From NCBI GenBank assembly GCA_032718475.1, contig JAUCBJ010007809.1, positions 1 to 64,000 on the forward strand: 64,000 bases of DNA, given 5' to 3'. Source of the stretch: Nemertoderma westbladi. Lineage: Eukaryota; Animalia; Xenacoelomorpha. The notes under the pieces were generated by a model, which was given only the letters and a program-made list of their open reading frames with translations, was not told the DNA's origin and made no database searches. Both the position numbers and the translations under genes were made by a program. The first letter of the stretch is position 1. Every line of letters begins with the position of its first letter. Below are positions 9,779-64,000 of this stretch, piece by piece.

Positions 9779-9899
9779 TCCTTCTCCTTTCTCTTACTCT
9801 CTTTCTATTATTTTTATTATTTTTATTTTTTTTATATTTGTGTGGGAAGGGCGTCTCGCCCTCAATCCCACCCCCCTCAGTCCAACATTTGGATGACTA

Positions 9900-31078: not shown

Positions 31079-31141
31079 CAGGTTGACGTCGCGAGAGGGT
31101 GGATGAAGCGTCGAGCCTGATCAGAAGAGGGAAGAAGAACA

Positions 31142-36935: not shown

Positions 36936-39620
36936 CACCCTGGGGCTGAATACAGATTTAGTCGAAAAAATTAGGTCAAGAATTTCGGTTATATTTTGTG
37001 ACTCTTTGACCCAAAACGATCCGATTTCGCGAAAAATTAAAAAAAATTATCGAAGAAAATTTTATTTATAAGTAATTTAATATTTATTTAATACTTATAA
37101 ATATTAGTCACCAATAAATTAATTAGCCCATGGATATATCATGGAAATTTGGAGTCTATGTGTTAAAGTAATGCAAAAAAACAAAAATGTAAAAAAATTT
37201 CTCGATATATATTTTAGTTATTAGTAATTTAATAATTATTTAATATTAACAAATATTAGTTTTCAAAAATAAATTAGCCCATGGATATGGAAAGAAAAAA
37301 TGGTGTCTATATGTTAAAGTAATGCGAAAAATCCAAAAATTAAAAAAAAATAACGATATAATATATTTTAGGTATTGATATTTACTTATTATAAATAATT
37401 ATAAATATCAATTAGTATTTTAATAATCATTATTTTCAATAATTATTAAAATATGTGTACATGGAATATCATTATACTAATGCAGAAAACTGAAGTTTAT
37501 TAAAAATATATATATATTATAAAATTGATTTATATTTATTTAACAATATTAATATTTATTGTACATTATAAATAATACTTTAGTTTATTTACAAATGTTT
37601 AGAGTTATATTCTTGAACGGCTCGTAACAGATGTTCAGAGTACTTTGGGTGTATCAAGGGTACCTTATGTATTTTGACCAGGAACTAGTCTGAAAGTCTG
37701 AATGTATCGATATTAAAGGAATATATATATTAAATATTAAAGGAAACATTACATTAATTGGAATAATTTTTACAAGTATTAAACATCACTACTGTATATT
37801 TATAATTTTGTACTAACCATGCACGCACACCCACACCTGTTATTTCATCTCTAATGGAGACGTGGAGACATACAAAATAAAGAAATAATTAGTTAAATTT
37901 AAACTCAAAACAATAATGATTTATGACCAAAATGCCAATGGCCTCCTGCCTGCCAGATACATTGTAAATTAATACTGATAGGTAGACAGGAGTAGAGGCA
38001 GCTATTGTATGTTTACTCTGCTGTTGCTGGACATCTGGAGTGGGTGGGTTTTAATATCTGTAATTGTGTTTGATAAATAATAAAGCAGGTAGTGATTGTC
38101 TGGGGGGGGGGGGGGGGGGTATTTGTTCTACACAACATACTTGGTTGGCATTCAGCATATCATCATACTATTTATAATTTGAGAATGTATGAAAGTTACT
38201 ATATGCCAGATTTAAGTTTTAATTATTTCGTTTCAATTTCTTATAATGCAACCAACCACCCACACATCGCAGACACACCTAAATAACACTACTAATAATT
38301 AATTTGAAAATTATATATAATTATTAAATATCAATAACTAAAATATATGTGGCTGGCCACGAGAAAAGGGACCTTATGTCGCAAAACCTGATTCTGAGAT
38401 AATCGCGTTTAAAGTTTCCCTCTATTTTTGGACAAATTTAATTGGATTATCAATTTAGAAATGTATAAAACGATGAGGGAAATTCAAATTGGTTCTGATA
38501 TTCAATATACCTAGGAAATAACTAATTACAGGAAGCAATATAAGATGCTGCAGTGTTGTATATAACACTGTCTTAGGGTTTTCATGTCTGAATTTAGGAC
38601 TGAAATAAATTCTACTACTGTAATATGTAGGTACTGTAGGCCTACAGTTATTTTTTAAATGCAATACAGTATAGCTATCATTTTCTTAATTTCTCTTCGT
38701 TTGTTCTGAAATTTCGTAATCCCAATAAAGAATTCAAAATACAAATAATTTGAAATTTTGTTAAACAAATTTATCTTTTTGAAAAAATTTTAAATTAAAA
38801 AAAAAATTTTTTTGGTTACATGTTTTTTTGAAAATTTTGCCAAAATTTTTTTAAAATAGTTCATGAACAATATTAATAGTTTCAAAGTGTTAAAAGTTGT
38901 ATAAAATGCCGAATAACATTGAGCTGCCTAACTATATAGTAAGAATTGCTATGATATTATTAATATTTTCAATTTTTTTAATAATCGCTTATTATAACCG
39001 CTATTAATAAAATTTTTTTTGCTACCCGATTCACCTTCACATAAATCACTATAACTTTTTTTTGGAAATAGATATTGAGACACCGTTTTTTTTGTTAAAA
39101 TCTCTGGAAAATTCTGCATCTCATAGGCCTAATAACTCAAAATCGACCTCCGGTGACATAAGGTCCCTTTTCTCGTGGCCAGCCACATATATCGATGTTT
39201 TTTTAAACTTTTTCGATTTTTTGAATTACTTTAACACATAGACTCAATTTTATTTTGTTTTATCCATGGGCTAATTCATTTTTAGAAATTAATACTTTTT
39301 AGTATTAAATAATTAATAAATTATTAATAACTAAAATATATATTGATAAATTTTTTTACATTTTTGTTTTTTTGCATTACTTTAACACATAGACTCCAAA
39401 TTTCCATGATATATCCATGGGCTAATTAATTTATTGGTTTATTGGTGACTAATATTTATAAGTATTAAATAAATATTAAAGTACTTATAAATAAAATTTT
39501 CTTCGATAATTTTTTTTAATTTTTCGCGAAATCGGATCGTTTTGGGTCAAAGAGTCACAAAATATAACCCAAATTCTTGGGCTAATTTTTTCGACTAAAT
39601 TTGTATTCAGCCCCAGGGTG
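36936..39620. mobile_element. Non-autonomous long-TIR DNA transposon, CAC..GTG termini, 4-bp TSD (Chapaev/CMC-like)
   Basis: TIR CACCCTGGGGCTGAATACA.ATTTAGTCGAAAAAATTAG extending ~400 bp; TACT duplicated at 36932-36935 and 39621-39624; empty site present in the paralogue at ~63070-63085. Confidence 0.85.
38348..39187. mobile_element. MITE nested in the Chapaev-like element (unclassified; (TA)n target)
   Basis: TIR TGTGGCTGGCCACGAGAAAAGGGACCTTATGTC at both ends with TATA flanks; TSD length ambiguous. Confidence 0.85.
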
Positions 39621-40935
39621 TACTGCCACGAGTCAAGTCACAGGATGGGGGCGTGTCCACGGTTGCATAACCGATGTTTGAAGTGTAACTTTCGGGGGCA
39701 CTACGGACGCCAGTGCGACTGGATGGACGAAGAAGATAAGTTTAGGATCTTCGAGGAGTGGGCCGACGTCGGTGCCATGACACGGCAACGTAGGAAGGCC
39801 CAGGAGTTCCGGTGGGGTTTCAATATTAATCAGGAGGCCCACCTGGAGATTATTAAGCGAAGACTTCCATTTACCTATCAGGAGGTAGCAATGGCGGCGT
39901 CGTATGTTGGGGTGATAAATACGCAGAGGTATTTGGACAGGTGGACGTCACAGAACCGAGGGGAGTTCAGAGATTTCTTGGCGGAGCATGTGCCGCGGGC
40001 GATGAAAATGATCCTATGGGACACCACCAGGGGGAGACAACAGGGCCTCTCAGAGGGGCCACCCACGAAGCGATACCGGGAACTGATAACACCAGCTCCC
40101 AAGGAGTCGACGACCGGGATTAGTAAAGAGGTGACGGCGAAGTTCAGGAGCCTGAAAGCAGACAAGACCAAAGGAGCGGCAGCAGCCAGGAAACGACCAA
40201 TGGAGGAAGACGATAGAGGGAAAGAGTTAAGGTGGTTCCCAAAGGCGAGCGGAACGAACTAGAGAACTAGGGATGTGACATGCCTGGAAGGCACCACGCA
40301 AAACGTGCAAACTCCTAAGTACAAATTCAAGTAATCTAAATAATTGAAAAGTGCAATTAGTATGTACGTATGTAGCAATCATTATTAGTTTAGCAAGTAA
40401 ATACAATCGAAGTAAGTACTATAGCTGTATAACCTTTTTCTCAATTAGCTACTGGGACTGGGGACCAATAGACTATAATACTATCACGGACGAGACACTG
40501 GACGACATCACACTTCTTGAGTGCGACGGCACGGGAGGAGGGTGAAGCTCGTCAGGAGTGAGTGGCTGAGATAGGGGTTGAGTAACAGCGTAATGAGAGT
40601 GCGGGTGCAATTCAAGTGTGGGGGGGGGGGGAGGAATAAGAGGCTGAGTGAGGGACAGGGATGTCCGAAAGTTAGAGCGGAAGTGAGAAGAAGTAGAGGA
40701 GAGTCAGTGTGAGAACAGAGTGGAGTTGGAGTGGCGAAAGTGTTGGGGAAACAAAAGTCGTGTGAGAGGAGCGCGCGATCGGCCCGACACGGGACGTCAG
40801 GTAAACAGGGTAGCGATATCATACCCATAGGGGGGCGGCCTGGAAAGCCAGCTCCGGAAAAATAATTCCACCCCACACCCGATGTTAGATCGGGATCCAA
40901 CGGAATTGTAGCGCACTAGGGGGGGGGGGGGGGGG

Positions 40936-41485
40936 TGTTAGCGTATTCAATTCCGTTAACCAGGCCCACACAAAGTTGGTTTTTAGGCAATATTGGGAGC
41001 ACGAGGTTGGTTACCAATCAACCTCGTGCCACCCAATAAGCGGGGGCAATAGGCCCCAAAGGAGACACACACAAAGGGGGTCAGAGGTTATACCTCCAGG
41101 GGAGAGAGTGACAGTAGCGGGGGGAGAAGAGAGTAAAGGGCGACAACAGGGTTATTAGCCAATGGGGGGAAGGCATCGCCTGGGTAGTGCAATACGGCAA
41201 TATATTACCAGCTACCATGTTATCATTCAGTAGTTATCTCATTCTGTTAGTCGGTTAGTTAGGGCAGAGCCGTGACTCTAATACCGTCCACTGCTGCCAT
41301 CATTCACTTATATTTTATATCTCATTCAATACTGCAATAACTGTGTTTGTGCTTATCCTATTATATTTATACTGCTACAGCGTCAACAATATTAGAACTC
41401 TTAATCTCACACTTTTCACTCACACGGCGGGGACGAATAATTGGAACAACCGGATAAACCGGGATCCTCCGTGGATTCCGTCACA
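40936..41485 (+). repeat. Bel/Pao family B 3' LTR (subtype b)
   Basis: Follows a poly-G PPT; TG..CA; AATAA near 41336; near-identical to 61208-61768 in reverse complement. Confidence 0.92.
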
Positions 41486-42778: not shown

Positions 42779-45044
42779 GTAACACTTACATTTATAGAAG
42801 TAATCAGCTGTTAATTGCTACGTCTTTCCGCTGGAGATGGATGAATTTTGATTGTGTCAGAACACCCCTTATCTATGGCTGTCTGAGTGGAGAGATAAGT
42901 AATACTTATTATTAAGTATCCTGTATCCGTGTTAATATTGTTGTGTTCTAGAATATTTATTATAGTTTCATCTTATTGCCAAAGTGACTGGAGCTGAAGT
43001 TAACTCATAATACAATAATTCACCTCAAATTTCTCAGCTATTTCATGAACATAATGAAGTATTAAAGCCATGTAAAAATCCTTGGTATTTTTCAGCAATA
43101 ATTTATCAAAATCTCCTCTGATTCTTTACTATAACCATATCGATTTTAATATTTATAACTTCTAACCCACTCCACATGATAGAGAATCTTAAATGAAAGT
43201 CAAAAGAACAGGTAACACTTAATTTATAGCAGTTATCAGCTGTTATATGCTATGTATTTCCGCTCGAGATGAAAGAATTTTGATTGTGTCAGAACAGCCC
43301 CTATCTGTGGTTGTATGAGTGGCGAGATAAGTATCCTATCTCCCTATTAATATTGTTGTGTTCTAGAATATTTTTTATAGTTTCATCGTATTGCCAAAGT
43401 GACTGGAGCTGAAGTTAACTCATAATACAATAATTCACCTCAAATATCTCAGCTATTTCATGAACATAATGAAGTATTAAAGCCATGTCAAAATCATTGG
43501 TGTTTTTATGTAATAATTTATCAAAATATCCTCTGATTTTTTTCAAAAACCATATCGATTTTCATATTTATAACTTCTATCCCACTCCACGAGATAGAGA
43601 ATCTTAAATGAACGTCAAAAGAACAGGTAACACTTACATTTATAGAAGTAATCAGCTGTTAATTGCTACGTCTTTCCGCTGGAGATGGATGAATTTTGAT
43701 TGTGTCAGAACACCCCTTATCTGTGGCTGTCTGAGTGGAGAGATAAGTATCCTGTTTCCGTGTTAATATTGTTGTGTTCTAGAATATTTATTATAGTTTC
43801 ATCTTATTGCCAAAGTGACTGGAGCTGAAGTTAACTCATAATACAATAATTCACCTCAAATTTCTCAGCTATTTCATGAACATAATAAAGTATTAAATCC
43901 ATGTCAAAATCCTTGGTATTTTTCTGCAATAATTTATCAAAATATTCTCTGATTTTTTTCAAAAACCATATCGATTTTCTTATTTATATCTTCTAACCCT
44001 CTCCACGAGATAGATAATCTTAAATGAAAGTCAAAAGAACAGGTAACACTTACATTTATAGAAGTAATCAGCTGTTCTTTGCTTCGTCTTTCCCCTGGAG
44101 ATGGATGAATTTTGATTGTGTCAGAACACCCCCTATCTGTGGCTGTATGAGTGGAGAGATAAGTAGCCTATCTCCCTATTAATATTGTTGTGTTCTAGAA
44201 TATTTGTTATAGTTTCATCGTATTGCCAAAGTGACTGGAGAGTTGAAGTTAACTCATAATACAATAATTCACCTCAAATATCTCAGCTATATATCTCAAA
44301 TATCTCAAATATCTCACTCCAAGAGATAGAGAATCTTAAATGAAAGTCACAAGAACAGGTAACACTTACATTTATAGCAGTAATCAGCTGTTATATGCTA
44401 CGTCTTTTTGCTGGAGATGGTTGAATTTTGATTGTGTCAGAACACCCCTTATCTGTGGCTGTCTGAGTGGAGAGATAAGTATCCTGTTTCCGTGTTAATA
44501 TTGTTGTGTTCTAGAATATTTATAATAGTTTCATCGTATTGCCAAAGTGACTGGAGCTGAACTTAACTCATAATACAATAATTCACCTCAAATTTCTCAG
44601 CTATTTCATGAACATAATGAAGTATTAAATCCATGTCAAAATCCTTGGTATTTTTCTGCAATAATTTATCAAAATATCCTCTGATTTTTTCAAAAACCAT
44701 ATCGATTTTCTTATTTATATCTTCTAACCCTCTCCACGAGATAGATAATCTTAAATGAAAGTCAAAAGAACAGGTAACACTTATATTTATAGAAGTAATC
44801 AGCTGTTCTTTGCTTCGTCTTTCCCCTGGAGATGGATGAATTTTGATTGTGTCAGAACACCCCCTATCTGTGGCTGTATGAGTGGAGAGATAAGTAGCCT
44901 ATCTCCCTATTAATATTGTTGTGTTCTAGAATATTTGTTATAGTTTCATCGTATTGCCAAAGTGACTGGAGAGTTGAAGTTAACTCAATAATACAATAAT
45001 TCACCTCAAATATCTCAGCTATATATCTCAAATATCTCAAATAT
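42779..45044 (-). repeat. Satellite array, orientation B, including a 732-bp higher-order duplication
   Basis: Variant TCTCAGCTATATATCTCAAATATCTCAAATAT at 44281 and 45013. Confidence 0.95.
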
Positions 45045-45589
45045 TGTGACGGGATCCAGATGGGATCCCGGTTTATCCGGTTTGTCAGTTCACGCGTCCC
45101 CGCCGTGTGTGAAGAGTAAAAGAGTTTCGGATGTTCGACGTGTATAATGTTTGGGTATATGGATGTAGATACGGTATAATGGTGGACAAAGTTATTGCAT
45201 ATGGAAGGTGGGAGACGGTAATTGAAATCCCGGTACTTCCCTAACTAAACTATTGTAAGCTACAGTAACACCAGTAACTAGCACTGAGATAACTGAACTG
45301 GTATGATTACAGGTTACTGGTTATATTGCACGGTGGCCTTATTGCTACTCAATCGATGCCTTTCCCCCCTCCTGATTGGTTGATACCCTTGTTGGCGCCT
45401 TTGGAGTGATCCCCTTCACTCCACCTGTTCTCTCTGGGTTAGGGGTTTGGCCCCTGACCCTCATTGTGTGGTTCACCTTCCCATTTTGTTGGGGTGACAC
45501 GAGTTGGTTATTACCCCAATCTCGTGGCCCCCAATATTGCTTATCGGCTTAACTTTTATGGGATGTTAGCGGGATTGAATAAGCTAACA
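45045..45589 (-). repeat. 3' LTR (subtype a)
   Basis: TGTT..CACA on the minus strand; direct repeat of 58770-59314. Confidence 0.97.
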
Positions 45590-46271
45590 CTCCCCCCCAT
45601 GCTATCTTCCCGGTAAGAAGATAGCATCAACCAAAAAGTGCGCTACAATCCCGCTGGATCCCGATCTAGCATCGGGTGTGGGGTGGAAATCTTTTCTCGG
45701 AGCCGGCTTTCCAGGCCGCTCCCTATGGGTATGATAACGCTACCCTGTATGCCTGGCGTCCCATGTCGGGCCGATCGCGCTCACCTCTCACGCAACTTTT
45801 GTTTCCCCAACACTTTCGCCCTATCTCTTCTCCACTCTCACCCTAACTCTCTCACACCCTCGGACCTTCTCGTCCCTCACTCAGCCTCTTATTCTCCCCC
45901 CCCCCACACTAGAATTGCGTCCGCACTCTTTCCGCACTTCGCACTATCACTCCGTCCCTCAACCCCACTTTGACTATCTCGTCCCTTCTGACGAATCTCA
46001 CCCTCCTTCCGTGCCGTCGCACTCAGGAAATGTGAAATCGTCTTATGTCTCGTCCATAGTCCCATAGTCAGTTGTCCTCCCAGTCCCAGTAGCTAATTGA
46101 GAAAGGTTGTATGACTATAGTACTTACTCCGATCGTATATATTTTATTGCTAAACTACTGATTACTACGTACGTACATATAATTGCACTTATTTGATTAT
46201 TTACATTAATTAAATTTGTACATAGTTCGCACGTCTCACGTGGCGCCTTCCAGGCGCACTACATCAAAGCC

Positions 46272-47316
46272 TCAGTCCATCCCTCCTTGGCGTCCGTGGT
46301 GTCCCCGAAAGTTGCACTTCGGACATCGGTTCTGCAACCGTGGACACGCTCCCATCCTGTGGCTCGACTCGCGGCAGTAGAGACAACTAGTCCCTTTCTG
46401 GAACCGGTACAAACAGCTCCTTTCCTGGTGGGTCTGTCTCCCACAGTAGCCGCAACCGAGTACCAATGTCTCCCGCCCCACGTCGTCTTTCATCCCAAGC
46501 GATCTCCGCAGTCTGTGGAGTTGCTGATAGGCGAACTTCTGGACGTTAGCGTCCCTGTCTACGTCGATCTCCTCGCCCCTCCCGGGCATCGTCTCTCCTA
46601 ATGCTACCCGTGGTGCCATCCCCGGTTGCTCGCCCAACCTGATAGTGCTCCCCGCGAAATCCATCGCCGGCTCCTCATGCACCCAGGTCCGCTTGCCGGA
46701 TCTGTTCCAGAAGGCCCTCGCCCCACTGGCCGTCACCACCCTTCCGCCAACCCTGTCCGTGTCTGAGTGGCCTATCCTCCCGATGGGCGGCATCTCTCCG
46801 AACTCGTCGTCGTCCTCCTCCTCCTCTGGCAGTGGCTTCAACCCCGGTATCCAGGTGGACCCACTATATCCCTTCCCGCCTTGGTTCTTGCCCGTAACTC
46901 TCCATACCTCAAGCTCCCCTAGCCCCCTTTGCGGTTGGTCGCCCTCGGCGCCCGCTGGTATGGGCATCACTTGCAATCCCGACGTCGACTGTTTCGGTGA
47001 TCCCACCGTCCACCCTAGTTCTTTCCCTAGAGACTCCCCCGAACTCCCTGACGAAGCCCAACGAAGTTCGTCTAAGGCTGCTTGTTCCTCGAAGCCGTAG
47101 CTCTGCGCCCTAGCTTCCTCCTCCCTCTCCTCTGCTTCTCTCCTCTCTCACAAGTTTGCCTGCCATCTCGAACTCTGCCCGGTCGCTCACCCGTAAGTGG
47201 TGCCTTGCCAAGGCGCAAACGTGATGAGTGATGGGTTTAGGTGGTTTAAGCTCAGTTCGATGGCCTATCTCTTTCTGAATTTCTGAGTTATTGCCTATTC
47301 TTACTACTGTTACCAT
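46272..47316 (-). pseudogene. Family B accessory ORF, internally deleted (acidic tract + 3 CCHC knuckles)
   Basis: PEEEEDDDEFGEMPP, CGYCGRQTHQERSC, CLYCRESSHRMGAC, CPKCNFRGHH; lacks the exonuclease and FEEW modules seen in other copies. Confidence 0.8.
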
Positions 47317-47589
47317 AATTTGTCCCCCTTCTTAGCCCTATTCTTATTCTAATTTTATTTTGATTTTGATTTCAATCCTACTACCTTATTGTTTCCTATT
47401 ACTTGCTACTGCCTATGGATTATTCTATCTCCTAATCCAACATTCTGGCCTACTCTGTGGGCCTGTGCAGTACAGCAGTATATGTCGCGCGGCCTACACG
47501 ATCTTTCCAACTGTACTCCTATGCCCCCCTCTTGCTACTAACTGCTAACTAATATCTATATTCTATATACCCTTCTACCTCTTACTCTT

Positions 47590-48155
47590 TCTCTAACTAA
47601 CGGTACTACGTACCTTCTAACTCTAACTCTTCTCTAACTAATGGTACTACGTACCCTCTAACTCTCTACCTAACGGTACTACGTACCCTCTAACTCTCAG
47701 CCTAACGGTACTACGTACCCTCTAACTCTACCTAACGGTACTACGTACCCTCTAACTCTAACTCTTCTCTAGCTAACGGTACTACGTACCCCCTAACTCT
47801 CTACCTGACGGTACTACGTACCCTCTAACTCTAACTCTTCTCTAACTAACGGTACTACGTACCCTCTAGCTCTCTAACTAACTAGTGGTACTACGTACCC
47901 TCTAACTCTCTAACTAACTAGTGGTACTACGTACCCACTAACTCTAACTCTTCTCTAACTAACGGTACTACGTACATTCTAACTCTCTACCTGACGGTAC
48001 TACGTACCTCCTAACTCTAACCTAACGGTACTACGTACCCTCTAACTCTCTAACTAACTAACTGACGGTACTACGTACCTCCTAACTAACTGACTCTAGG
48101 TACTACGTACCTCTTAACTAACTTCTGCCTACTAACTGCGTACCTACTATGTACT
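47590..48155. repeat. Minisatellite of ~15 GGTACTACGTAC(C) hairpin units with (CTAACT)n spacers
   Basis: Units recur every 30-45 bp; GGTAC-TAC-GTACC is self-complementary. Confidence 0.9.
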
Positions 48156-48262
48156 ATTTATATAATTTTATTTTATATTTTTTTGTGTGGGAAGGGCGTC
48201 TCGCCCTCAATCCCACCCCCCTCAGTCCAAAACTTGGACGATTAAACTCTTCTCTAACTCCA

Positions 48263-51200
48263 CTAAGGTGCCCATTCTAGCAGACAGCATTTCCCTACAG
48301 CTCTCCTGTAGGTTTTTCTGTCCTTCGCACCTATCTTACCACCTATCCGCACTTCTACCGATCGGACTCTTCCGTCCTCATCGGAGTAAGTGCCTACAAC
48401 TCTCGCCAACCGCCACTGGTTGTTGATGATAGTATCATCCGTGACGATTACGAGATCTCCCTCTCTTAACTCCCTGTTCGGTTTCCTCCACTTGCTTCTT
48501 TTATGGAGTGTGGGTAGGTATTCTTCTACCCACCTCCTCCAATACTCTGCGCTTATTGCTTTAGCGACTTTCCAACTCTGGCGGGAGTGTATATCATCTG
48601 GGTCTACACCCCGCATATCGATGGTCGTTGGCCTTTCCATCAGAAAATGGCTAGGCATCAGCACGCTCCGGGTATAGCGGTCTGCTATTAATGATCCCCT
48701 CGCACTTCGCAAGCACTGTCCGTAAGACGTCCTCAGTGACCATGTGGGTGTTCATTAGCTTCGTCATTAGACGCTTTGAACTTCCCACCAGTCTCTCGAC
48801 GCATCCTAGTGTATGTGGTGCATACGGCGTCCTTCTCTCCCACTTTACTTGTCGTCTTCTCATGGCCGCCCTGACTTCCTCCCCTTCCAAGATGTCCAAG
48901 GCCACGGCCATCTCATTCTCTGCGCCCACAAAGTTTGTGCCGTTGTCGCTGTATATCACTGCGATCGTCCCACCTTTGCGGTCTCTAAATCTTTCTAAGG
49001 CATTAATGAATGCTGATGCGGTTGCATCCTGGGCGAGTTCTATCCCTACTGCCCGCGTGTTGTTACATACGAAGATGATGCCGTAGCGTTTCTCCATGTG
49101 CCGCATCACCTTAATCTTTATCGGCCCGAACATGTCCACACCGCAATGCGTAAATGGCGGGTCGTGCTGTCTTACTCTACTAGCTGGTAGTGGCGCCATC
49201 TCTTGTATGGATCGCTCCTTCTTCGCTCGTCGGCACGTCTGGCACTGCCCCACCACCGCTTTTACCTTCTTCCTCAACTGTTTGACCCAAAAGGTCCTCC
49301 TTATCTCCGTGAGAGTTCTGTTGGTACCCCCGTGCAATATCGACTTGTGGGAGTACCAGATAATCTGGTGAACTATCGGCGATCCTGTGGGGATGATGAT
49401 GGGCTTCGGTGGTACAATTATGCTGTTGTTGTATCCCACCCTAGAATTCATCACTAGAATCCCGTCGTCATTAAGTTGTGGCGACAGCGCGATCAGCTCG
49501 CTGTCCCGTCGAAGGTGTTGTTGGTTACCGACGCGTTCAACCTCGTCGCCATAGTTCTTCCATTGTTCATAGCGGATGACTGCCTTGGCCGCTCCTTCCA
49601 GATCTATGTATGTATTGATCTTCTTGTCCTTGCCAACTCCCGCGAGGAAATTCCCGAAGGCTCTCCAATACGCCACTAGTTTCTTGGTCTTGTACCAACT
49701 AGAGCTGTAACTGAGGAGTTTATCCGTCGGGTTATCGCACAGCTCTTGGCGTGGTTGTACATCCCTAATCTCCCTCACCATCTGGGAGTATATCTCTTCT
49801 CCCTCTGAATCTCCTTCTTCTCCCTCTGACACTACTTCTGAGCCCGGATCCACCTTTCTCATCGGCGGCCAGGCCTCCTTATCACTCAGAAATTGTGGCC
49901 CATGTTGCCACAATTCTTCCTTCTTCAAGAAAGTGTGGCGTACCACGCCCCTCGACAACAAGTCCGCTGGGTTCTCGTCTGTTGGGCAATAGTGCCACCT
50001 TTCCAGTTCTGTGGTCGCCCTTATTTCGTCCACTCTATTTGCGACGAATATCGGGTATCTCGTCCTTTCGTTTTGTAGCCAACCAAGCACTACCATGGAA
50101 TCCGTCCAGTAGTGTGTCTCCACTATGTTGGGAATAGTATCCACTAGGTAGGCTGTGGCTCTAACTCCTAATCTCGCAGCTGTCAATTCTAACTTGGGAA
50201 CTGATGCTGAATCTGGTGGTGTCGACTTTGCTTTGCTAAAGGCTAGTCTGGGCTTTTGAGCCCCCTCTCGTTGTACTAAATAGAGTGCCGCTCCGTACGC
50301 CTCCAACGACGCATCGGAGAACATGTGTAGGTCCAGATTCGTCATATTCCCATCCGGGAAATACACTCGTGGCATGTTGTATGTTCCCATCTTCTCCAAG
50401 TCTCCTGTCCACTTACTCCACTGTTTCTTGATTTCCTCTGGTACCTCTACGTCCCACTCATCCTTCAATTTGTATACTCTCTTGAGTATCTGTTTCCCCG
50501 TGACTAATAATGGGGATGCTAGGCCTAGGGGATCGTATATCCTTGCTATATACGATACATAGCCCCTCTTCGTGTGGATGTCTGCGCCCTCCTGGCTCAG
50601 CTGATACTTCAGTTCGTCTGTCTCTCTGTTCCACACGATTCCCAATGCCTTCTGTTGAGATTCTGTTCTCTTGTTCGCCATGTCCTGCCCTTTGGCTGTT
50701 GTGGGATTATCCATGGTCGATTCTGGCCTCTTGTCCTCTATCGCCTTGATAAATTCTTCCGAACTGGATTGGAATTTGGTCAGGTTAAAGCCGGATCCTT
50801 TTAGGATGTCGCGAACCTCGCGCCCCGTGTCCAGTATCTCCTTAACCGTATTTCCAGACTCCATTCCATCGTCTACGTAGAAGCCGCGTCGAATCATATC
50901 GACGGCCCTACTGCTGTATCTATCTTCCTTCCCCTTCACTGTGTCTCTCACTGCCATAGTCGTCGTAAATGAAGACGACTTGGCCCCCATGTTTTGTACT
51001 ACCATCTTATATGCTGGTATTATCGACGGTTCTTCCTCGCCGTTATACCATAAGAAGCGTTGACTGTCGCTATCTTCCTCCGTTACACGGACTTGGTTGA
51101 ACATGCCTTCTATGTCACACGTGAAGGCGTGTTTCCCGTTTCTAAATCTAAGTAGGACCTCTATGCCCGAGTTGTATATGTTTGGGCCTTCTAACAGATA

Positions 51201-54110
51201 GTCGTTTAAGCATTTTCCGTTGGTCTTTGCCGATGCGTCAACTACCATCCGCAGTTTACCTTTCTTTGGGTCTAAAGCCACGTGGAGTGGCAGGTAATAT
51301 GTCCTGTCCGTGTTCGGTTCGTCGACCGGTAACTCCACGGCCCATCCTTTCTCGACGTACTTCTTAATCGTTCTGTGGATGTACTCATTCTTCTCGGGGC
51401 TCCGTTTTAGTGTTTGTTTCAGCTTGCGGAGTCTCGTGAGTACCATCCCTCTATTATCGGGCAGCGGTATCTTCGGTAGTTTCCATACCATTCCTATAGT
51501 ATACCGCCCCTCATCGCATGTCATCGTTTCCTCCACGCTTTGTAAAGCCTGCTTGTCTTCTACCGAGGTCCCGACCCCGGTCTCTTTCAGTCCCTCGAAA
51601 TCTTGTCTGAGCAGTCTTTTAAGCTGCTCCTCTGCTCCCTCATCACCCATTTCCTGCATTGTTCCCGCGAACATGCATCCTGATGTCTCCGACATCCTAA
51701 ATGGTATCTTGCTCTTGATTGGACCACTCAGCGTCCACCCGAATGGTGTTAATATGGCCACCGGGTCACTCTGCTTGTCTTCGCCGAAGACCGTTTGCAT
51801 TCTTTCGTGGGCCGTTGGGCAGTCCATTCCTACTATGATGGATACCTTCCTAACGTCCACGTCTGGGATTGAGAAGTCAATGTCGTCCAGGAATTTATAT
51901 TGCTCGACCTCGATGTTGGTTGGCCGCCTGGCATTGATATTAATTGACTCTATCACTTGGATGGGGTCGATGGTTGCCCCATAGTCGCATCCCGGTGCCA
52001 CTGCTGCAATTGCGCACCGTCCGGTTCTCATCTCCAGGATCTCATCTTTGCTAGAGATGGTTGTTACCGCCATTCTGCTCGGCCTCGTTCTCAATCCTAT
52101 CTCTTCGGCCACCCATTCCTCGACTAGTGTGAAGGCAGCTCCACTGTCAACCAGCATTAGTGTTGTTACTGATCGATTGCCTTCCCCAATCACTCGCACG
52201 GGTACTACTCCAAGTAGCACCGTTCCGCTCTTCTTCGCCCCTGCTGTGCTCGTTGCCATCATTTGGCCTCTCCTCTGACCGAACTTTACCGGCTTCTCCT
52301 TGCATTCCCTAGCTCTATGTCCACTCATCACACACCGTGAACAGATTTTATTGCTCGACGCATAATCTATCTGATCTTGCCTAGGTAGCGCCTGCCAGTA
52401 CCTGCAGTTCATGGTTTGATGAAGCGCATTTGCGTGTAGCTGGCATTTGCTCTTTGGGTCGTAGCCCTCCTTATACAGCGCATTGCGTATCGCAGCTGCG
52501 TTTGTACCAAAGTCCCTACTATTCTTATTGTTTGGATTCGGCCTACTGGACGTACTGGGGTTATATTTATTCGTGTTGTTATTGTTCCCCTGTCCGTTCC
52601 ATGGTGTGGTCTTATCTTCGGCTAGCTGTGGACTCGTAGTCCCCTGCGTCGCTGCATATGGCAATGATTGCCTGAGCCTCGGTAATGCGTTTGATGTATT
52701 GTGGTCTGGTTTCGGTCTATGGTAATCTGTTTTCGGTCCCTTTCCCAGGCTATCTTCGCTATAGACTGGGTCAGTTATTAGTTCAGCCTCGTAGTTTAAG
52801 AAGTTTGACATTTCTTCTAAACCTGGTTCCGCACCCTTCTTATCTCGAGTGGAGAAGGCGATTTTCCTCCACTTGTTGCGCAGCCAGTTTGGTAGTGCCT
52901 GCGCTATCGTTGTGATGTTGTTGGACGCGTTGAGCTCGTATGGCGCGTCTAGCGTCTTCAGCACGATTAGCGCCTTTTCAACTTTGTTAGCAAATGTCTT
53001 AATGCTAACGGGATTATCCTGTAGGCCACCCGATGTTATGCCTCTTAGTGTCTGTCTGATGATCTTGGCCGGGTGCCCGTATTCCCTATCCAGTGCCCGC
53101 CATGCTGTCGTGAAGCCGCCCTCTATTCCTTGATATTGCCTCACGATATCGTATGCTGGGCCTCCCGTGTATACTTGCAGATACTTTAGGCACTCCGCCT
53201 GCGTCAAGTTCTTTGTTAGTATCTCGTTACTATACATGCGCCGAAACTGTAAATATTCTTCCGGCCTACTCCCATCGAATTTGAATGGTTCCACGGGTGG
53301 TAACTCGATCCTCGTTTTCAACGCATCGATCAACGTGGCCATCCCCATCGCCTGCGCTTCCAATGGATTCGATGGGTGCTGCATAGTTTCTCCTGTCTGG
53401 TGCGGTTCGTCCGTCCTATTTCTTGACTTTCTTTGACTTGGGTATGTCATCGGGGGTAGCGGCCCCCTCCATATTTCTGTGTCACACGACCTATTTTCAT
53501 CCAAGGGTCTCGTTGTTCTTGCTCCTATCGGGGTATATTGTTGATATTGTGATGGGGGAATGTCACCCTGCCCCCCCCCCCCCACCGGTATGTTTGGTAC
53601 TGGGGTTGATGTTAATATGTTGGGGCCCATACACCTATCCGCAATAATTCCCCCCTCCCCTGGGTATATGTTATGTCCCTGCATGCTGTAGTCATACTGC
53701 TGTACTGGTACCGGTATAGGCCTATCAGCTTCTGGCCTACTCGCCGGTATGTATTCCGCGACTTCCGGGTTTAATCCCGTCGTCCGCGCTATCCTATCGC
53801 CTACATTGCCTCTCTCAGTATGGCCTATGGTATGTGCAGTAAGGCCTACAGTATGTCCTACAGTCTGCATGTGTCGCTCGGGATCGAAGTTTATTCTTCT
53901 CGAATAATCCTCCCCGCGGCTACCGTATTCTCGATCGGTAGGTATATTCCGTCGGAAAGTTTCTCTTCGACCCCCCTCTCTACTGTCCTCATCTTCGTAC
54001 CGGTACATCGCGTACCCCTCTCTCGGCGCGTAGTGCGCCCCGCCAGGTCGCATCTCTCCGGGGCGACGGCAATCTCCCGGAGTTCGACCCCACTCACTCT
54101 CTGTTCTCAT
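48263..54110 (-). CDS. gag-pol: Bel/Pao Gag-Pol (gag core, CCHC, aspartic protease, RT, RNase H, integrase); 1819-aa ORF plus frameshifted C-terminus
   Basis: FKFDGS, CSRCVMSGHRAREC, LVDSGA, RMVVDAS, CDIEGMF, GFYVDDG, YDPLG, FSDAS, PKLEL, WTDSM, NPADLLSRG, CGVDMFGP, YSDNGTNF, GCVERLV; the last 149 aa (48263-48712) are in another frame. Confidence 0.96.
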
Positions 54111-54629
54111 CTCGACTACCGACGGCTCGCTATCCGTCCTCGCTCTTCTATCGTTCGCGGCGATACTTCTACTACTGTCTTCTCTTCTTCTCCTTTCAGT
54201 GGAGTGTTCCCGCTCGTGAGATCTCTCGTCGACCTCCCGGTTAAATCCCGACTGTTCTTCTTCCCTCTTCTGATCGGGCTCGACGCTTCGTCCGCCCTCT
54301 CACGACGTCAACCTGTCTCTCTCTGCTCGGTCGCACGTCGCTGGGGATACTCGCAATCCCCCTACTACTCTCCGTCGCCGGGTGTTGCGGTTTACCTATT
54401 TCGGCCCGCGCATTATCCGCTGACGGCTGTGGGACACTCTCTGCCCCCCCCCCCCCTTTCGCCGCTAACTCGCTGTTGTGGGGCCCCTGTAGCCCCCCCC
54501 CCCCCCCCCACTCGCCACATCTAACTTCGCTATCTCTCACCCCGCTACTATATCCCTCTCTAGTCGACACATCAGCCCTACCGCGGTCGGGTCTATTCAC
54601 CCCCGCCTCTCCCTCTGCTATTGCGTGGC

Positions 54630-54886
54630 CCACCAGGCCCCCGCTGGGTCTATCCAACCCAGCCACTCCCTGCCTACCAACTACGTGGCCTACCAGGCCC
54701 TCGCTGGGTCTATCCAACCCAGCCACTCCCTGCCTACCAACTACGTGGCCTACCAGGCCCTCGCTGGGTCTATCCAACCCAGCCACTCCCTGCCTACCAA
54801 CTACGTGGCCTACCAGGCCCTCGCTGGGTCTATCCAACCCAGCCACTCCCTGCCTACCAACTACGTGGCCTACCAGGCCCTCGCTG
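54630..54886. repeat. 60-bp tandem repeat (RPSEGLVGHVVGRQGVAGLD on the minus strand), continuing after 56472
   Basis: Lines 54661, 54721, 54781 and 54841 begin identically. Confidence 0.95.
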
Positions 54887-56472
54887 GGTAATGGTGAAAA
54901 ATATCGAGACTTGCAAAATATCGAGAGTAAAAATAACGAGAGTAAAAATATCGAGAGTAAAAATAACGAGTGTTGAAAATTAACGTGATTAAAAAATATC
55001 AAGAGTAAAAATAACGCGAGATGAAAAATATCGAAAATAACGAGTGTTGAAAAATATCGAGTGTTGAAAAATATCGAGAGTAAAAATATCGAGTGTTGAA
55101 AAATATCGAGAGTAAAAATATCTAGTGTTGAAAAATATCGAGTGTAAAAATATCGAGTGTTGAAAAATATCGAGAGTAAAAATATCGAGTGTTGAAAAAT
55201 ATCGAGTGTTGAAAAATATCGAGTGTAAAAATATCAAGTGTTGAAAAATATCGAGAGTAAAAAATATCGAGTGTTAAAAAATATCGAGAGTAAAAATATC
55301 GAGTGTTGAAAAATATCGAGAGTAAAAATATCGAGTGTTGAAAAATATCGAGTGTTGAAAAATATCGAGAGTAAAAATATCGAGAGTAAAAATATCGAGT
55401 GTTGAAAAATATCGAGAGTAAAAATATCGAGAGTAAAAATATCGAGTGTTGAAAAATATCGAGAGTAAAAATAACGAGTGTTGAAAATATCGAGTGTTGA
55501 AAAATATCGAGAGTAAAAATATCGAGTGTTGACAAATATCAAGTGTTGAAAAATATCGAGAGTAAAATGTATTGCATTTTGCTTGAGCATTTTATTTAGA
55601 ATTATGGAACAATATTGCAGTGCATGGGTTACAACAGTGCAAGTGAATGGCATTATGTATTACACCTTGGGTACCCATTTACCAGATTTATTATACTAGC
55701 TAGTTTTTGCTATTTTTTGAATAAATATTATAAAAGAAGTGCTAGCTATAAATTTTGATAAATATTATAAATATTGTTAAATATTATATTAGAACACGTA
55801 CTGTATAAGCTACCAAATGTTGATAAATATTGTTGTTCTAGAACATTTTTAGTAAAAAAAATTATCATACAACCCTTATTTAAAAAAATTGTTACTATCA
55901 ATATTTTTACTCTCGATATTTTTCAACATTCTATATTTTTCAACACTCGATATTTTTACTCTCGATATTTTTCAACACTCGATATTTTTCAATACTCAAT
56001 ATTTTTCAACACTCGATATTTTTACTCTCGATATTTTTCAACACTCGATATTTTTACTCTCGATATTTTTCAACACTCGATATTTTTACTCTCGATATTT
56101 TTCAACACTCGATATTTTTACTCTCGATATTTTTCAACACTCGACATTTTTACTCTCGATATTTTTCAACACTCGATATTTTTACTCTCGATATTTTTCA
56201 ACACTCGATATTTTTACTCTCGATATTTTTCAACACTCGATATTTTTACTCTCGATATTTTTCAACACTCGATATTTTTACTCTCGATATTTTTACTCTC
56301 GATATTTTTCAACACTCGGTATTTTTACTCTCGATATTTTTACCCTCGATATTTTTACTCTCGATATTTTTTGAACTCTCGATATTATCGTTATTTTTCA
56401 ACACTCGATGTTTTTACTCGCGTTATTTTTACTCTCGATATTTTTCATGTCTCGATATTTTTCAATATAACC
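54887..56472. mobile_element. Foldback-like non-autonomous DNA element with long, internally repetitive inverted arms
   Basis: Left arm (AAAAATATCGAGAGT / AAAAATATCGAGTGTTG)n ~54887-55568; inverted right arm ~55898-56472; ~330-bp AT-rich spacer; CCTCGCTG duplicated at 54879-54886 and 56473-56480 (TSD could be 6-10 bp depending on the termini). Confidence 0.88.
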
Positions 56473-58769
56473 CCTCGCTGGGTCTATTCAACCCAGCGGA
56501 TCCCTGCCTACCAACTACGTGGCCTACCAGGCCCTCTCTGGGTTGGCTCAACCCTGCCGCTTCCGGCCTACCAATTATACGGCCTACCAGACCCCCATCT
56601 GCCTGGCCATACACGCCCGACGTGTTTACGTTAATAGCACCCATATAGGAAACGGAATTAATTTGTTCGTTCGAAATAAAATCATTTGGATTATGTTGCG
56701 CGACTACACTATCTGAATTATTTTGTAAATTCGGGCTTGGATCATTATTTAAATTATTTGCATTATTTTGTAAATTCGGGCTTGGATCATTATTTAAATT
56801 ATTTGAATTATTTTGTAAATTCGGGCTTGGATCATTATTTAAATTATTTGAATTATTATTATTCTCTAAATCTAAATTACCACTCGGATTATTTTGCACG
56901 TTGAAATTGAAATTATTATCTGTATTTAAATTTAAATTACTGCTACTAGGTAAAGTATTTCCTGCAATAAAGATTTGATTAGAATTATCCCATACGGTAC
57001 TATTAATATTAACAACGTCTACTGTAACATTATCATTATTACCCCCCCCCCCCCCCCCCCCCCCCGCCCGTACGGTCACACCAGTTTTGGGTCTGTCGTG
57101 CGGTCCCTGTAAGTGGGGTATTAATAAATGTATCCACGGCCCCTGGCTCCTCTAAAATACTCGAGCCAGTCCCGCTTTCAGACGCCCCCGCCTGCACCAG
57201 TTGCAGCTCGCGCGCGCGCCTAATCCTATGCCCCGCAAGCTCATTTTGGCATCTCTTTAATTCCTTTCGCTCACACTCCTCCTTGGCCATTCTCTCCCTA
57301 CACTCCCGTTCGCTCTGTTCGGCCAACTCTGCCACTCTCCTAGCTTCTTCCCGTCGTCTTGCCCCACGCTCCTTGAGTTCCTTTTCCTCTATCGCCTCAT
57401 GCTCCTTACGTTCCGCCTCCTCTCTCGCCTCACGCTCCTTGCATTCTGCCTCCCTTCTCGCCTCACGCTCCTTGCGTTCCTTTTCCTCTCTCGCCTCATG
57501 CTCCTTACGTTCCGCCTCCTCTCTCGCCTCACGCTCCTTGCGTTCTGCCTCCCTTCTCGCCTCACGCTCCTTGCGTTCCGCCACACGCTCCTCTTGTTCC
57601 TTTCTCTCTATTTCCTCATACTCCCTAAGGCTTCTCAAAGCCCTTTCGGCCCTCTCTCCGGTTTCTCTAATCAATACCGTTTCCCTCTCTAGCCGCATTC
57701 TCCCCTCCTCTAACTGTTTATCCATTTCCCTCTGACCATGCTCTATCAGGTCGAGACGGTACGTGGCACCTATCTCTCTCACCAGTCTTTCTTTCGCGGA
57801 GGATGTAACAGACTTATCGGTTGTGACGGATTCCCTCTGCCTTCCCGTCCTACTAACTTTCCCCCTCCTCCCGGAACTCCCTCCGGCCGACGAGACCGAA
57901 TCCGCGGGGTCAACCTCGGATTTGCCCTCCTCAGGTCTGTTCCAACCCACTGATTTTATACCCCGGGCATCGATTAAGTATGGCCCTATGTACACTACAC
58001 TAGGTTGTATACCCCCTTGCCGCCATGAGTCATACAGTTCCTCGGCAACCCTTGTCGCTCTCTCCTCGGCCAATTCTCTCTGCCCGAAGCGCATTAGATA
58101 ATATAAATGTCTGTCCGACTTACCTAGTCCTGACTTTAGTTTTACCTCGTCTATAGCCTTCCCCTTTCTGGCCTCCTCTAGTAGTCTCCGGGTCGCGTTG
58201 TAGGCCCGTCGACGTCGATCGGAGACCCCGATGTCCTCGTCGCCGACCTCTCCTCCGTCTCTCCGGGTTCGACGTCGTACCGGCGGCCCCACCGTCGCCG
58301 TTCCGGTGGGCCGTCCGTCGCCCTCGGCCTGTGGTTGGCCCGCGACATCGGTATCGACATCTCCGTCGTCTCTCCGGGTCCGGTGTCGTACCGTCGGCCC
58401 CACCGTCGCCGTCTCGGTGGGCCGTTAGTCTCTCTCGGCCCGTGGCTGGCCCGCGACATCAGTACCTCGACCCACATCCCGTGTTGACTCGTCTTCTTCT
58501 CCCTCCATCTCGCTCTCTCCTCCTCTCGACTCGATCTCGGGTTCCAGGCGGCCCCCCTCATCCTGAGCTGCCGGATGACCCGTTACTGATGGGTCCGGCT
58601 TTGTGGGCCTGTACCGCCTGGTTGCGGCCTCGCGGATCGTTAATTCTTCTTCGTCCGGGGTCCGCGTCGGCGTTATCTCTCCCGACTGACTCATCTCGGC
58701 TTTTGTAGATTGGTGGCTGGTAGTCACTGAGTTTTAGATAGCTAGGGCGGCAGCTCTGAGTTCAATTAC

Positions 58770-59314
58770 TGTGACGGGATCCAGATGGGATCCCGGTTTA
58801 TCCGGTTTGTCAGTTCACGCGTCCCCGCTGTGTGTGAAGAGTAAAAGAGTTTCGGATGTTCGACGTGTATAATGTTTGGGTATATGGATGTAGATACGGT
58901 ATAATGGTGGACAAAGTTATTGCATATGGAAGGCGGGAGACGGTAATTGAAATCCCGGTACTTCCCTAACTGAACTATTGTAAGCTACAGTAACACCAGT
59001 AACTAGCACTGAGATAACTGAACTGGTATGATTACAGGTTACTGGTTATATTGCACGGTGGCCTTATTGCTACTCAATCGATGCCTTTCCCCCCTCCTGA
59101 TTGGTTGATACCCTTGTTGGCGCCTTTGGAGTGATCCCCTTCACTCCACCTGTTCTCTCTGGGTTAGGGGTTTGGCCCCTGACCCTCATTGTGTGGTTCA
59201 CCTTCCCATTTTGTTGGGGTGACACGAGTTGGTTATTACCCCAATCTCGTGGCCCCCAATATTGCTTATCGGCTTAACTTTTATGGGATGTTAGCGGGAT
59301 TGAATAAGCTAACA
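58770..59314 (-). repeat. 5' LTR (subtype a)
   Basis: Direct repeat of 45045-45589. Confidence 0.97.
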
Positions 59315-61207: not shown

Positions 61208-64000
61208 AGTGACGGAATCCACGGAGGATCCCGGTTTATCCGGTTGTTCCAATTATTCGTCCCCGCCGTGTGAGTGAAAAGTGTGAGATTAAGAGTTCTA
61301 ATATTGTTGACGCTGTAGCAGTATAAATATAATAGGATAAGCACAAACACAGTTATTGCAGTATTGAATGAGATATAAAATATAAGTGAATGATGGCAGC
61401 AGTGGACGGTATTAGAGTCACCGCTCTGCCCTAACTAACCGACTAACAGAATGAGATGACTACTGAATGATAACATGGTAGCTGGTAATATATTGCACGG
61501 GTTGGCCGTATTGCACTACCCAGCCGATGCCTTCCCCCCATTGGCTAATAACCCTGTTGTCGCCCTTTACTCTCTTCTCCCCCCGCTACTGTCACTCTCT
61601 CCCCTGGAGGTATAACCTCTGACCCCCTTTGTGTGTGTCTCCTTTGGGGCCTATTGCCCCCGCTTATTGGGTGGCACGAGGTTGATTGGTAACCAACCTC
61701 GTGCTCCCAATATTGCCTAAAAAAAAAACTTTGTGTGGGCCTGGTTAACGGAATTGAATACGCTAACACCCCCCCCCCCCCCTAGTGCGCTACAATTCCG
61801 TTGGATCCCGATCTAACATCGGGTGTGGGGTGGAATTATTTTTCCGGAGCTGGCTTTCCAGGCCGCCCCCTATGGGTATGATATCGCTACCCTGTTTACC
61901 TGGCGTACCGTGTCGGGCCGATCGCGCGCTTCTCTCACACGACTTTTGTTTCCCCAACACTTTCGCCACTCCAACTCCACTCTGTTCTCACCCTGACTCT
62001 CCTCTACTTCTTCTTACTTCCGCTCTAACTTTCGGACTTCCCTGTCCCTCACTCAGCCTCTTATTCCTCCCCCCCCCCCACACTTGAATTGCACCCGCAC
62101 TCTCCTTACGCTGTTACTCAACCCCTATCTCAGCCACTCACTCCTGACGAGCTTCACCCTCCTTCCGTGCCGTCGCACTCAAGAAGTGTGATGTCGTCCA
62201 GTGTCTCGTCCGTGATAGTATTATAGTCTATTGGTCCCCAGTCCCAGTAGCTAATTGGAAAAAGGTTATACAACTATAGTACTTACTTCGATTGTATTTA
62301 CTTGCTAAACTAATAATGATTGCTACGTACTTACATACTAATTGCACTTTTCAATTATTTAGATTACTTGAATTTGTACTTAGGAGTTCGCACGTTTTGC
62401 GTGGTGCCTTCCAGGCATGTCACATCTCTAGTTCTCTAGTTTGTTCCGCTCGCCTTTGGGAACCACCTTAACTCTTTCCCTCTATCGTCTTCCTCCATTG
62501 GTCGTTTCCTGGCTGCTGCCGCTCCTTTGGTCTTGTCTGCTTTCAGGCTCCTGACCTTCGCCATCACCTCTTTACTAATCCCGGTCGTCGACTCCTTGGG
62601 AGCTGGTGTTATCAGTTCCCGGTATCGCTTCGTGGGTGGCCCCTCCGAGAGGCCCTGTTGTCTCCCCCTGGTGGTGTCCCATAGGATCATTTTCATCGCC
62701 CGCGGCACATGCTCCGCCAAGAAATCTCTGAACTCCCCTCGGTTCTGTGACGTCCACCTGTCCAAATACCTCTGCGTATTTATCACCCCGGCATACGACG
62801 CCGCCGTTGCTACCTCCTGATAGGTAAATGGAAGTCTTCGCTTAATAATCTCCAGGTGGGCCTCCTGATTAATATTGAAACCCCACCGGAACTCCTGGGC
62901 CTTCCTACGTTGCCGTGTCGTGGCACCGACGTCGGTCCACTCCTCGAAGATCCTAAACTTCTCTTCTTCGTCCATCCAGTCGCACTAGCGTCCGTAGTGC
63001 CCCCGAAAGTTACACTTCAAACATCGGTTATGCAACCGTGGACACGCCCCCATCCTGTGACTTGACTCGTGGCAGTAGAGACAACTAGTTCCTTTCTGGA
63101 ACCGGTACAAACAGCTCCTTTCCTGGTGGGTTTGCCTCCCACAGTAATCGCAGCCGAGCACCCATGTCTCCCGCCCCAAGCGATCTCCGCGGTCTGTGGA
63201 GTCGCTGACGAGCGAATTTCTGGATGTTAGTGTCCCTGCCCACGTCGATCTCCTTGCCCCTCACGGGCATCGTCTCCCCGAATACTACCCGTGGTGCCAT
63301 CCCCGGTTGTTCACCCAATCTGATGGTGCTCCCCACAAAATCCATCGCCGGCTCCTAATGCACCCAGGCCCGCTTGCCGGGTCTATCCCAGAAGGCTCTC
63401 ACCCCACTGGCCGTCACCACCCTCCCGCCAACCAAGTCTGTGTCCAAGTGGCCCAACCTCCCGATGGGCGGCATCTCTCCGAACTCGTCGTCATCCTCGT
63501 CCTCCTCCGGAAGTGGCTCCAACCCCGGTATCTTAGTGGATCCACTGTGTCCCTTCCCACCTTGGCTTCCTCGCCTTCCCACAGCTCCGCAATGGCCTGT
63601 GTTCTCGACTAGTCCCAAACCGTCTGGTGCTGTCATAGCCATGACGACCGTCTGCATGTCTAGGAGGTTGGGGTGTCCAGACCGATGATTCTCTCCGCGT
63701 CATTGCGAATTGCCGATCCCACTTTCGTCGTCGACTTCTCTCTCACTAGGACTTGCACCGCCCTCGGCAGCCGGTTTAACTTCGGCCCGTCCTTCTTCCC
63801 ATACGTTCCCAGGTCAAATAGGAAAATATCCCCATTTGGCGCAGCTAAGTGTAGGAGTATGGTTCTGGCCGATCCCGCCGACCCTCCTCGTCTTCTACGG
63901 TCCCTTCGTCGTCTAGGATCATGTATCCTCCCTTGTTGACGGACTCTATGAACCTCTTCCAATCTTTCCTCGGCGACTCTCTCGCGTACTTCGGAATCCC
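61208..64000 (-). mobile_element. 3' end of a Bel/Pao family B copy (LTR 61208-61768, PPT, 3' UTR, accessory gene); continues beyond the window
   Basis: Reverse complement of ~36495-41485 without the DNA transposon, and retains extra upstream accessory-gene sequence. Confidence 0.93.
62436..64000 (-). pseudogene. Family B accessory gene: DEDDy-like 3'-5' exonuclease domain + acidic linker + 3 CCHC knuckles + conserved C-terminal module (stops/frameshifts; 5'-partial)
   Basis: Manual translation across frames: GGYMILDDEGT (ExoI DxE, ~63902-63919), ILLHLAAPNGDIFLFDL, LPRAVQVLVREKSTTKVGSAIRNDAERI (ExoII), NLLDMQTVVMAM; then the knuckles and FEEWTD..QRR..WGF. Confidence 0.72.

Follow-up and report, generated by a model that had tools for sequence, protein, structure and literature searches.

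A predicted DEDDy exonuclease and zinc-knuckle third gene of Bel/Pao retrotransposons, decayed in Nemertoderma westbladi

What does a nuclease-like gene do in the place where a Bel/Pao retrotransposon would carry env? The question is raised by one end of a 64,000-nucleotide stretch of Nemertoderma westbladi DNA (contig JAUCBJ010007809.1, positions 1 to 64,000; hereafter the window), where a Bel/Pao copy denoted E2 (61208-64000, minus strand) carries motifs of a DEDDy 3'-5' exonuclease followed by three zinc knuckles. Judged by sequence, these belong to what is almost certainly an old third gene (open reading frame 3, ORF3) of Bel/Pao elements, comprising a predicted DEDDy exonuclease domain, three zinc knuckles and a helical module. 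This architecture is real, general and well supported. It lies behind pol, is under purifying selection and has descended together with the reverse transcriptase (RT), and its catalytic residues are intact in about half of the families and lost in one conserved clade. The mechanism is graded separately: E2 may be a decayed copy of a gene whose product acts on the element's own RNA in a ribonucleoprotein or virus-like particle, a reading that we prefer without being convinced of it.

The decayed copy and its exonuclease stretch

The window end at 64000 cuts E2 inside the gene. Its features are:

63580..64000, minus: N-terminal half of an exonuclease domain of DEDDy type (WRN/EXD2/Nibbler-like), two frameshifts, truncated by the window end (profile and motifs)
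63925-63902, minus: YMILDDEG, frame 0 (translation)
63857-63810, minus: LLHLAAPNGDIFLFDL (translation)
63770-63744, minus: LPRAVQVLV, frame 2 (translation)
63725-63699, minus: KVGSAIRND, frame 2 (translation)
63666-63652, minus: LLDMQ, frame 1 (translation)
63565..63579, minus: junction from which E2 is homologous to the other copies in the window; ExoIII half missing (comparison of window copies)
63153..63564, minus: linker including an acidic tract (63507-63481), one stop and one frameshift (translation)
62982..63152, minus: three CX2CX4HX4C zinc knuckles (63152-63111, 63083-63042, 63023-~62982), in-frame stop in the third
62436..62984, minus: conserved helical C-terminal module (to about 62808), then a basic tail (profile and model)
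62424-~61208, minus: 3' long terminal repeat (LTR), ~1.2 kb, TG start, purine-rich tract immediately upstream (identity to other copies)

A sequence-only reading of this stretch had described a DEDDy motif order broken by two frameshifts, an acidic tract, three knuckles and a further module, and all of these were located on the E2 minus strand. The motifs fall in three reading frames, both frameshifts lying within the exonuclease part. The ExoI D-x-E and the ExoII D are present, and the ExoIII Y-x3-D, which that reading had also failed to see, was found in no frame; its half of the domain was likely deleted in this copy. E2 is a dead copy: besides both frameshifts of the exonuclease part, the linker carries one stop and one frameshift, and a further stop interrupts the third knuckle.

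The DEDDy assignment held on E2 and on intact relatives. Joined by X at the breaks, the three exonuclease pieces of E2 scored 36.9 bits (P 1e-13) against a profile built without them, colinear with positions 35-146 of 271, and the best shuffled control reached 3.0 bits (2000 shuffles, 1149 reported). With a refined profile the score was 44.9 bits (positions 33-157 of 291), and extending the E2 domain in another frame to about 63490 gained just 2 bits. The pieces taken separately had no PF01612 match in a Pfam scan, and the exonuclease piece alone returned nothing relevant in Pfam, PDB sequence, plasmid or phage searches. Word-based protein searches gave no matches with pieces of the window and only the seed with the family alignment, and locus scans of metagenome and viral contigs with the exonuclease piece had no yield. 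An ESM Atlas value of 0.87 to PF01612 clusters was a lead only.

Downstream of the exonuclease, the ratios of nonsynonymous to synonymous substitution rates (dN/dS) between E2 and E1, a second Bel/Pao element in the window, are 0.30 for the linker and 0.14 for the knuckles. Knuckles and C-terminal module together match their profile with 62.6 bits over 63152-62808. When the knuckle module of a relative was modelled alone from 60 sequences, it was compact (pLDDT 91.4, pTM 0.84), and the C-terminal module is predicted to pack with the knuckles. A Foldseek search of PDB and BFVD with this model gave nothing at E 0.001 (Nanos came nearest, at E 2.4), and zf-nanos was found in 3 of the 60 members. 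The knuckle module is what stays constant in ORF3, whether the exonuclease is there or not; its fold is predicted with confidence, and the libraries searched gave no clear counterpart. The E2 3' LTR is 97.5% identical to window positions 39621-41484 and 71.6% identical to the 3' LTR of E1. The integrase region of E2 would lie past the window end, and its link to Bel/Pao runs via a sister element, E4/E3, with 93-97.5% identity.

Many variants of the exonuclease stretch occur among contigs from runs X1-X3 (two samples), with 28-41 contigs differing at one position within it, which indicates that the stretch is multi-copy. Five X1 contigs diverge from the window's sequence at 63579. Run X5 had no cover over 63542-63907 and carries no weight as evidence.

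Relatives and evolution of the exonuclease domain

A degenerate knuckle-motif pattern matched at least 120 metagenome stretches and had 0 matches in viral contigs. Eighty stretches were taken with flanks and 79 were in frame (L074 was dropped); since this sample was chosen by the knuckle motif, the share of all Bel/Pao elements with the gene is not derivable from it. A Bel/Pao integrase lies upstream on the same strand in 40 of the 79 loci, and exonuclease and knuckles share one ORF in 32 of these and lie in a split ORF in 6; two (L050, L062) have no exonuclease (a first-pass profile had given 31, 5 and 4). The proposal of a Bel/Pao carrier with the gene in the env position held in these relatives, and an unrelated insertion confined to the N. 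westbladi copy is excluded at family level. Among the 39 loci without detected integrase, 30 have <2.5 kb upstream, and for the other nine a wider search found pol remnants in L025 and L066, no pol in 10 kb upstream of L015, and none in the shorter upstream stretches of L008, L011, L035, L051, L055 and L078.

Pol in E1 and in the eight related loci scanned has the Pao-type protease-RT-RNase H-integrase order, and the LTRs of E2 (about 1.2 kb) and L026 (797 bp) lie within the family's range of 0.2-1.2 kb. All eight pol ORFs scanned contain Peptidase_A17 (E below 1e-38) and DUF5641, no dUTPase family appeared in Pfam scans of pol (E1 and related loci), and the Gypsy probes taken from the window had no match in any locus. 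A complete element is present at L026: its two LTRs are 95% identical, and the 5' LTR is followed by a TGG-starting candidate primer-binding site (Bel/Pao elements typically use tRNA-Arg or tRNA-Gly). ORF3 does not look env-like in its signal or transmembrane segments: in only 2 of 44 ORF3s (>=600 aa) does the mean hydropathy of a 19-residue stretch reach 1.9.

Several loci differ in layout. At L015:8912-10012 an exonuclease and knuckle gene is preceded by 10 kb free of Bel/Pao pol, and L011, L035 and L075 share a 507-aa version that likewise lacks pol within up to 1.9 kb; both are possible non-autonomous or domesticated copies. L008, L046, L054 and L018 have ORF3s of 1300-1600 codons, with long N-terminal extensions that have no Pfam match.

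These relatives bear on whether the exonuclease stretch of E2 is a chance junction of two unrelated repeats, or no exonuclease at all. It is true that E1 and E4 in the window are without exonuclease, that the piece alone has no Pfam or PDB sequence match, and that no contig of the runs bridges the E2 junction among the matches listed. However, among 150 proteins found via the knuckle module only, 29 have a complete homologous exonuclease and 35 a partial one, with the domain order unchanged, and the E2 piece clusters with three of them, the intact P0016, P0008 and P0032 (support 0.98), which have E at the ExoIII acidic position. The chance-junction explanation is thereby largely refuted, and we regard it as very improbable.

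The domain is predicted from models to have the DnaQ-like fold of a DEDDy 3'-5' exonuclease. Its nearest profile match is EXD2 and its nearest structural match Nibbler, with 13-18% identity to host DEDDy proteins. It shares fold and motif order with EXD2, the WRN exonuclease, Nibbler/mut-7, EXD1 and Egalitarian, but none of their other domains were seen and ORF3 is encoded by a mobile element. In a comparison with PF01612, which the sequence-only reading had suggested as a check, the Pfam cut-off was not reached: a single one of 54 proteins matched (23.3 bits, cut-off 23.6), and 0 of 12 ORF3s and 0 of 12 further ORFs did. The family is a diverged branch overlooked by Pfam. An HRDC domain of the Rrp6/EXOSC10 type had no Pfam match, and structural alignments with Rrp6 span the exonuclease part only.

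At 90% non-redundancy 83 exonuclease domains remained (3 of 86 were dropped), forming 57 clusters at 50% identity. All four acidic residues are kept in 42 of the 83, 39 of them as D-E-D-[D/E], and 25 have at most one left. By position, the ExoI D is kept in 47 and E in 54, the ExoII D in 47, and the ExoIII Y in 53 with D in 47 or E in 17. L013, L047, L080 and L082 form a deep branch in which His replaces the ExoIII Tyr (H-x3-D) with the four acidic residues intact, and L006, L044 and L061 form a branch with Glu at ExoII (D-E-E-D), a variant spelling also reported for bdelloid ORF3s (PMC5408684), the likeness being one of spelling.

In an RT tree of our own loci without outgroup (the L036 RT was taken from a downstream copy in the same contig), 11 of the dead-exonuclease forms with RT form one clade (support 1.0) and 9 active forms another (0.995). 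E1 is a long separate branch, with about 27-32% RT identity. Exonuclease and RT distances across 22 loci are correlated (rho 0.84, 0 of 2000 permutations), and 10 of 19 splits are common to both; a single old capture, passed down with the element since, would account for this. Intact ORFs under dN/dS<1, a proposed test of the gene, were found among the relatives: exonuclease dN/dS is 0.04-0.53 in 37 and saturated in 6 of 43 pairs with >55% identity from 57 loci, the pairs sharing members and hence being non-independent. Close pairs within the dead clade have values of 0.04-0.31.

The balance of intact and dead domains also bears on an Egalitarian-like localisation adaptor, in which the exonuclease fold would bind structured element RNA and tie it to transport machinery. 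Egalitarian matches both profile and fold, including its complex with the I-factor RNA signal, and the dead clade is conserved; however, four acidic residues kept in half of the domains would be needless for a pure adaptor, and this role appears the weakest of the functional proposals.

Junction with pol and possible roles of ORF3

The pol end was located in 34 loci, with ORF3 in frame past a single stop in 10, overlapping in 4 and separate in 20. All ten in-frame stops are TGA, and nine are TGA-C (three CGG, two CAA-TTA). Elsewhere, TGA-C occurs in 3 of 20 separate-ORF cases and 2 of 47 ORF3 stops; the five further TGA-C cases fall within the dead clade. Readthrough is well established for the contexts UGA-CGG and CAR-YYA (PMC3159437), and the third ORF of SIRE1 is expressed through stop suppression (PMC2829016). 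Taken together, this bias, these contexts and the SIRE1 precedent make programmed readthrough to a Gag-Pol-ORF3 fusion likely in the dead clade and in two active-site elements (L032, L079). A stem-loop after the stop (z <= -2) occurs in 6 of 15 TGA-group loci vs 3 of 19 others, with no clear signal, and the E2/E1/E4 family has no in-frame pol-stop-ORF3 arrangement in the window.

We propose, somewhat more doubtfully than the own-RNA role itself, that single-stranded RNA is held by the knuckle module while its 3' end sits in the exonuclease fold, to be trimmed in intact-site lineages and only retained in the dead clade. In some lineages a leaky TGA-C stop may yield a fusion packaged with the RNA. 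The conserved dead and nuclease-less forms suggest that binding is the core job, and these forms, with the likely Pol fusion, are why we favour a role on the element's own RNA. CCHC and DEDDy domains work together in this way in Trypanosoma brucei RNase D (TbRND; PMC7797062).

Complementary DNA (cDNA) end-processing or proofreading, in which the exonuclease would trim mismatches or the ends of DNA while reverse transcription proceeds or ahead of integration, fits the same data poorly. The fusion signature is concentrated in the clade without catalytic residues, and a dead enzyme under purifying selection cannot proofread; we consider this role improbable, if marginally less so than the adaptor.

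The main rival is counter-defence, in which ORF3 would target small RNAs of the host in trans, either over-trimming or capping the 3' ends of PIWI-interacting or small interfering RNAs (piRNA/siRNA) or serving as a decoy for the host trimmer. Nibbler/mut-7 and EXD1, DEDDy proteins that act in small-RNA pathways, are among the top structural matches. The discussion in PMC5408684 likewise places them there, and TbRND, in which the two domains are likewise paired, breaks down small guide RNAs (PMC7797062). Furthermore, intact-site lineages mostly have ORF3 as a separate ORF, and most pairs show more rapid divergence in ORF3 than in integrase or RT. We still find counter-defence unlikely, though well ahead of the cDNA and transport roles. 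A combined scenario seems slightly less likely again: an old, undescribed Bel/Pao lineage would have swapped env for a Nibbler/EXD-like mimic of a small-RNA trimmer joined to a new triple-knuckle domain, existing in active, dead and nuclease-less forms and sometimes delivered in particles by programmed readthrough, which would shield element RNA from the host piRNA/siRNA pathway or disable that pathway.

Several points weigh against the own-RNA role, which is a proposal from sequence and predicted fold. L050, L062, E1 and a second family in the window keep the knuckle module without the exonuclease, which is thus dispensable in some lineages. Within N. westbladi sequence E2 alone links exonuclease and knuckles: in E1 and E4, the window's only other copies of the family showing the integrase-to-knuckle stretch, acidic tract and knuckles follow the integrase with the exonuclease absent, and homology with E2 begins near 63565. 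Structural scores for WRN and for DNA-polymerase exonuclease domains lie within 2 Z units of each other, so RNA and DNA substrates are indistinguishable from the fold. The readthrough loci are related, most falling in the dead clade and only L032 and L079 having an intact site, and thus may represent two or three independent cases. Lastly, ORF3 is separate in 20 of 34 loci, where packaging would not be required.

Neighbouring repeats and known systems

The window is a nest of repeats, including:

45037..59314, minus: Bel/Pao element E1 (LTR halves 99.1% identical; Peptidase_A17 E 5e-40, DUF1759)
54299-48651, minus: E1 gag-pol, 1882 codons
about 47165-46275, minus: E1 ORF3, acidic tract and knuckles without exonuclease or C-terminal module
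31078..41484, plus: Bel/Pao element E4/E3, sister of E2 (same subfamily), with pol, ORF3 minus its 5' part, C-terminal module and LTR
36936-39620: later insertion splitting E4/E3 inside the second knuckle, 2.7 kb, ~96-bp terminal inverted repeats, 4-bp target duplication
2..3969, plus: second, distant Bel/Pao family, an integrase/DUF5641 ORF, then an ORF (2878-3969) with triple knuckle and C-terminal module

E1 is a young element. No primer-binding site that starts with TGG follows its 5' LTR (58730-58770, minus) despite the near-identical LTRs, and its priming may be non-canonical. A coiled-coil-rich ORF upstream of its gag (57039-58733, minus) has no Pfam match, tandem repeats lie on both sides of gag-pol (54624-56465, 47568-48123), and E1 measures ~14 kb vs 4-10 kb given for the family. 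The insertion in E4/E3 is likely a non-autonomous DNA transposon. The knuckle module of the second family (E 2e-7; profile 33.1 bits) is accompanied by no exonuclease detectable by profile, and a candidate decayed exonuclease half at 2717-3172 was rejected, having no Atlas support and no profile match. A 221-codon basic ORF with no Pfam match follows the knuckle ORF (3873-4538, plus). Arrays of a 416-bp satellite (7382-9780, 24263-24978, 27437-29081, 41486-45084, 59322-61207) in several cases abut or interrupt Bel/Pao LTR ends. A decayed LINE-like element (15787-18691, minus) and a Ty3/gypsy element (19332-23810, plus) were judged by eye from ORF translations.

The closest published likeness is in bdelloid rotifers, whose Juno1/2 and Vesta2/5 LTR elements, which we take to be Ty3/gypsy-type, and Athena/Terminon elements (Athena being Penelope-like) differ in type from the Bel/Pao carriers here. 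They encode a DEDDy ORF3 with intact catalytic residues (Rodriguez et al. 2017, PMC5408684, open text); in Juno/Vesta it likewise lies behind pol in the env position with no transmembrane domain, and its function, as here, is predicted. The main text of that paper gives no triple CCHC fusion, dead clade or readthrough, and the dUTPase in pol of Juno/Vesta did not appear in Pfam scans of our carriers, a comparison by description and not by sequence. TbRND (PDB 7C42-7C4C; PMC7797062, open text) has the same domain pair, but is a cellular enzyme that trims guide RNAs in mitochondria and carries four fingers near the domain, whereas ORF3 has three knuckles past a long disordered linker plus the helical module (16% identity). 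Env-bearing Belpaoviridae likewise place a third gene between Bel/Pao gag-pol and the 3' LTR (de la Chaux and Wagner 2011, PMC3118150; PMC8742986), but that gene is env-like, the sole kind that either source names, the second being the ICTV profile, and ORF3 here is a predicted soluble nucleic-acid-binding protein. SIRE1 has its ORF3 one stop codon past pol, expressed as a fusion; however, it is a plant Ty1/copia element with an env-like product and readthrough shown, where ours is inferred (cited in the open text of PMC2829016).

The architecture had been put forward as undescribed. Our literature search found no report of a Bel/Pao exonuclease ORF3, although subscription journals, supplements, Repbase, Dfam and GyDB lay outside its scope and may hold annotation; "exonuclease" occurs 0 times in the open text of PMC3118150, and PMC5718144, PMC6431247 and PMC6338049 cite the rotifer case only in theirs. 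A DEDDy ORF3 in LTR elements was already in print (PMC5408684), so the novelty is lower than first held. The sequence-only reading did not include the clade of pseudo-nucleases, the variants lacking an exonuclease or the likely readthrough from pol.

Dozens of deeply diverged Bel/Pao families, represented by the domains and clusters above, keep an enzyme-type third gene under selection that Pfam has missed, so that what was seen in rotifers becomes a strategy that recurs in different LTR superfamilies. Its natural active, dead, nuclease-less and readthrough versions form a comparative set for asking whether animal retrotransposons encode RNA-processing or anti-silencing factors.
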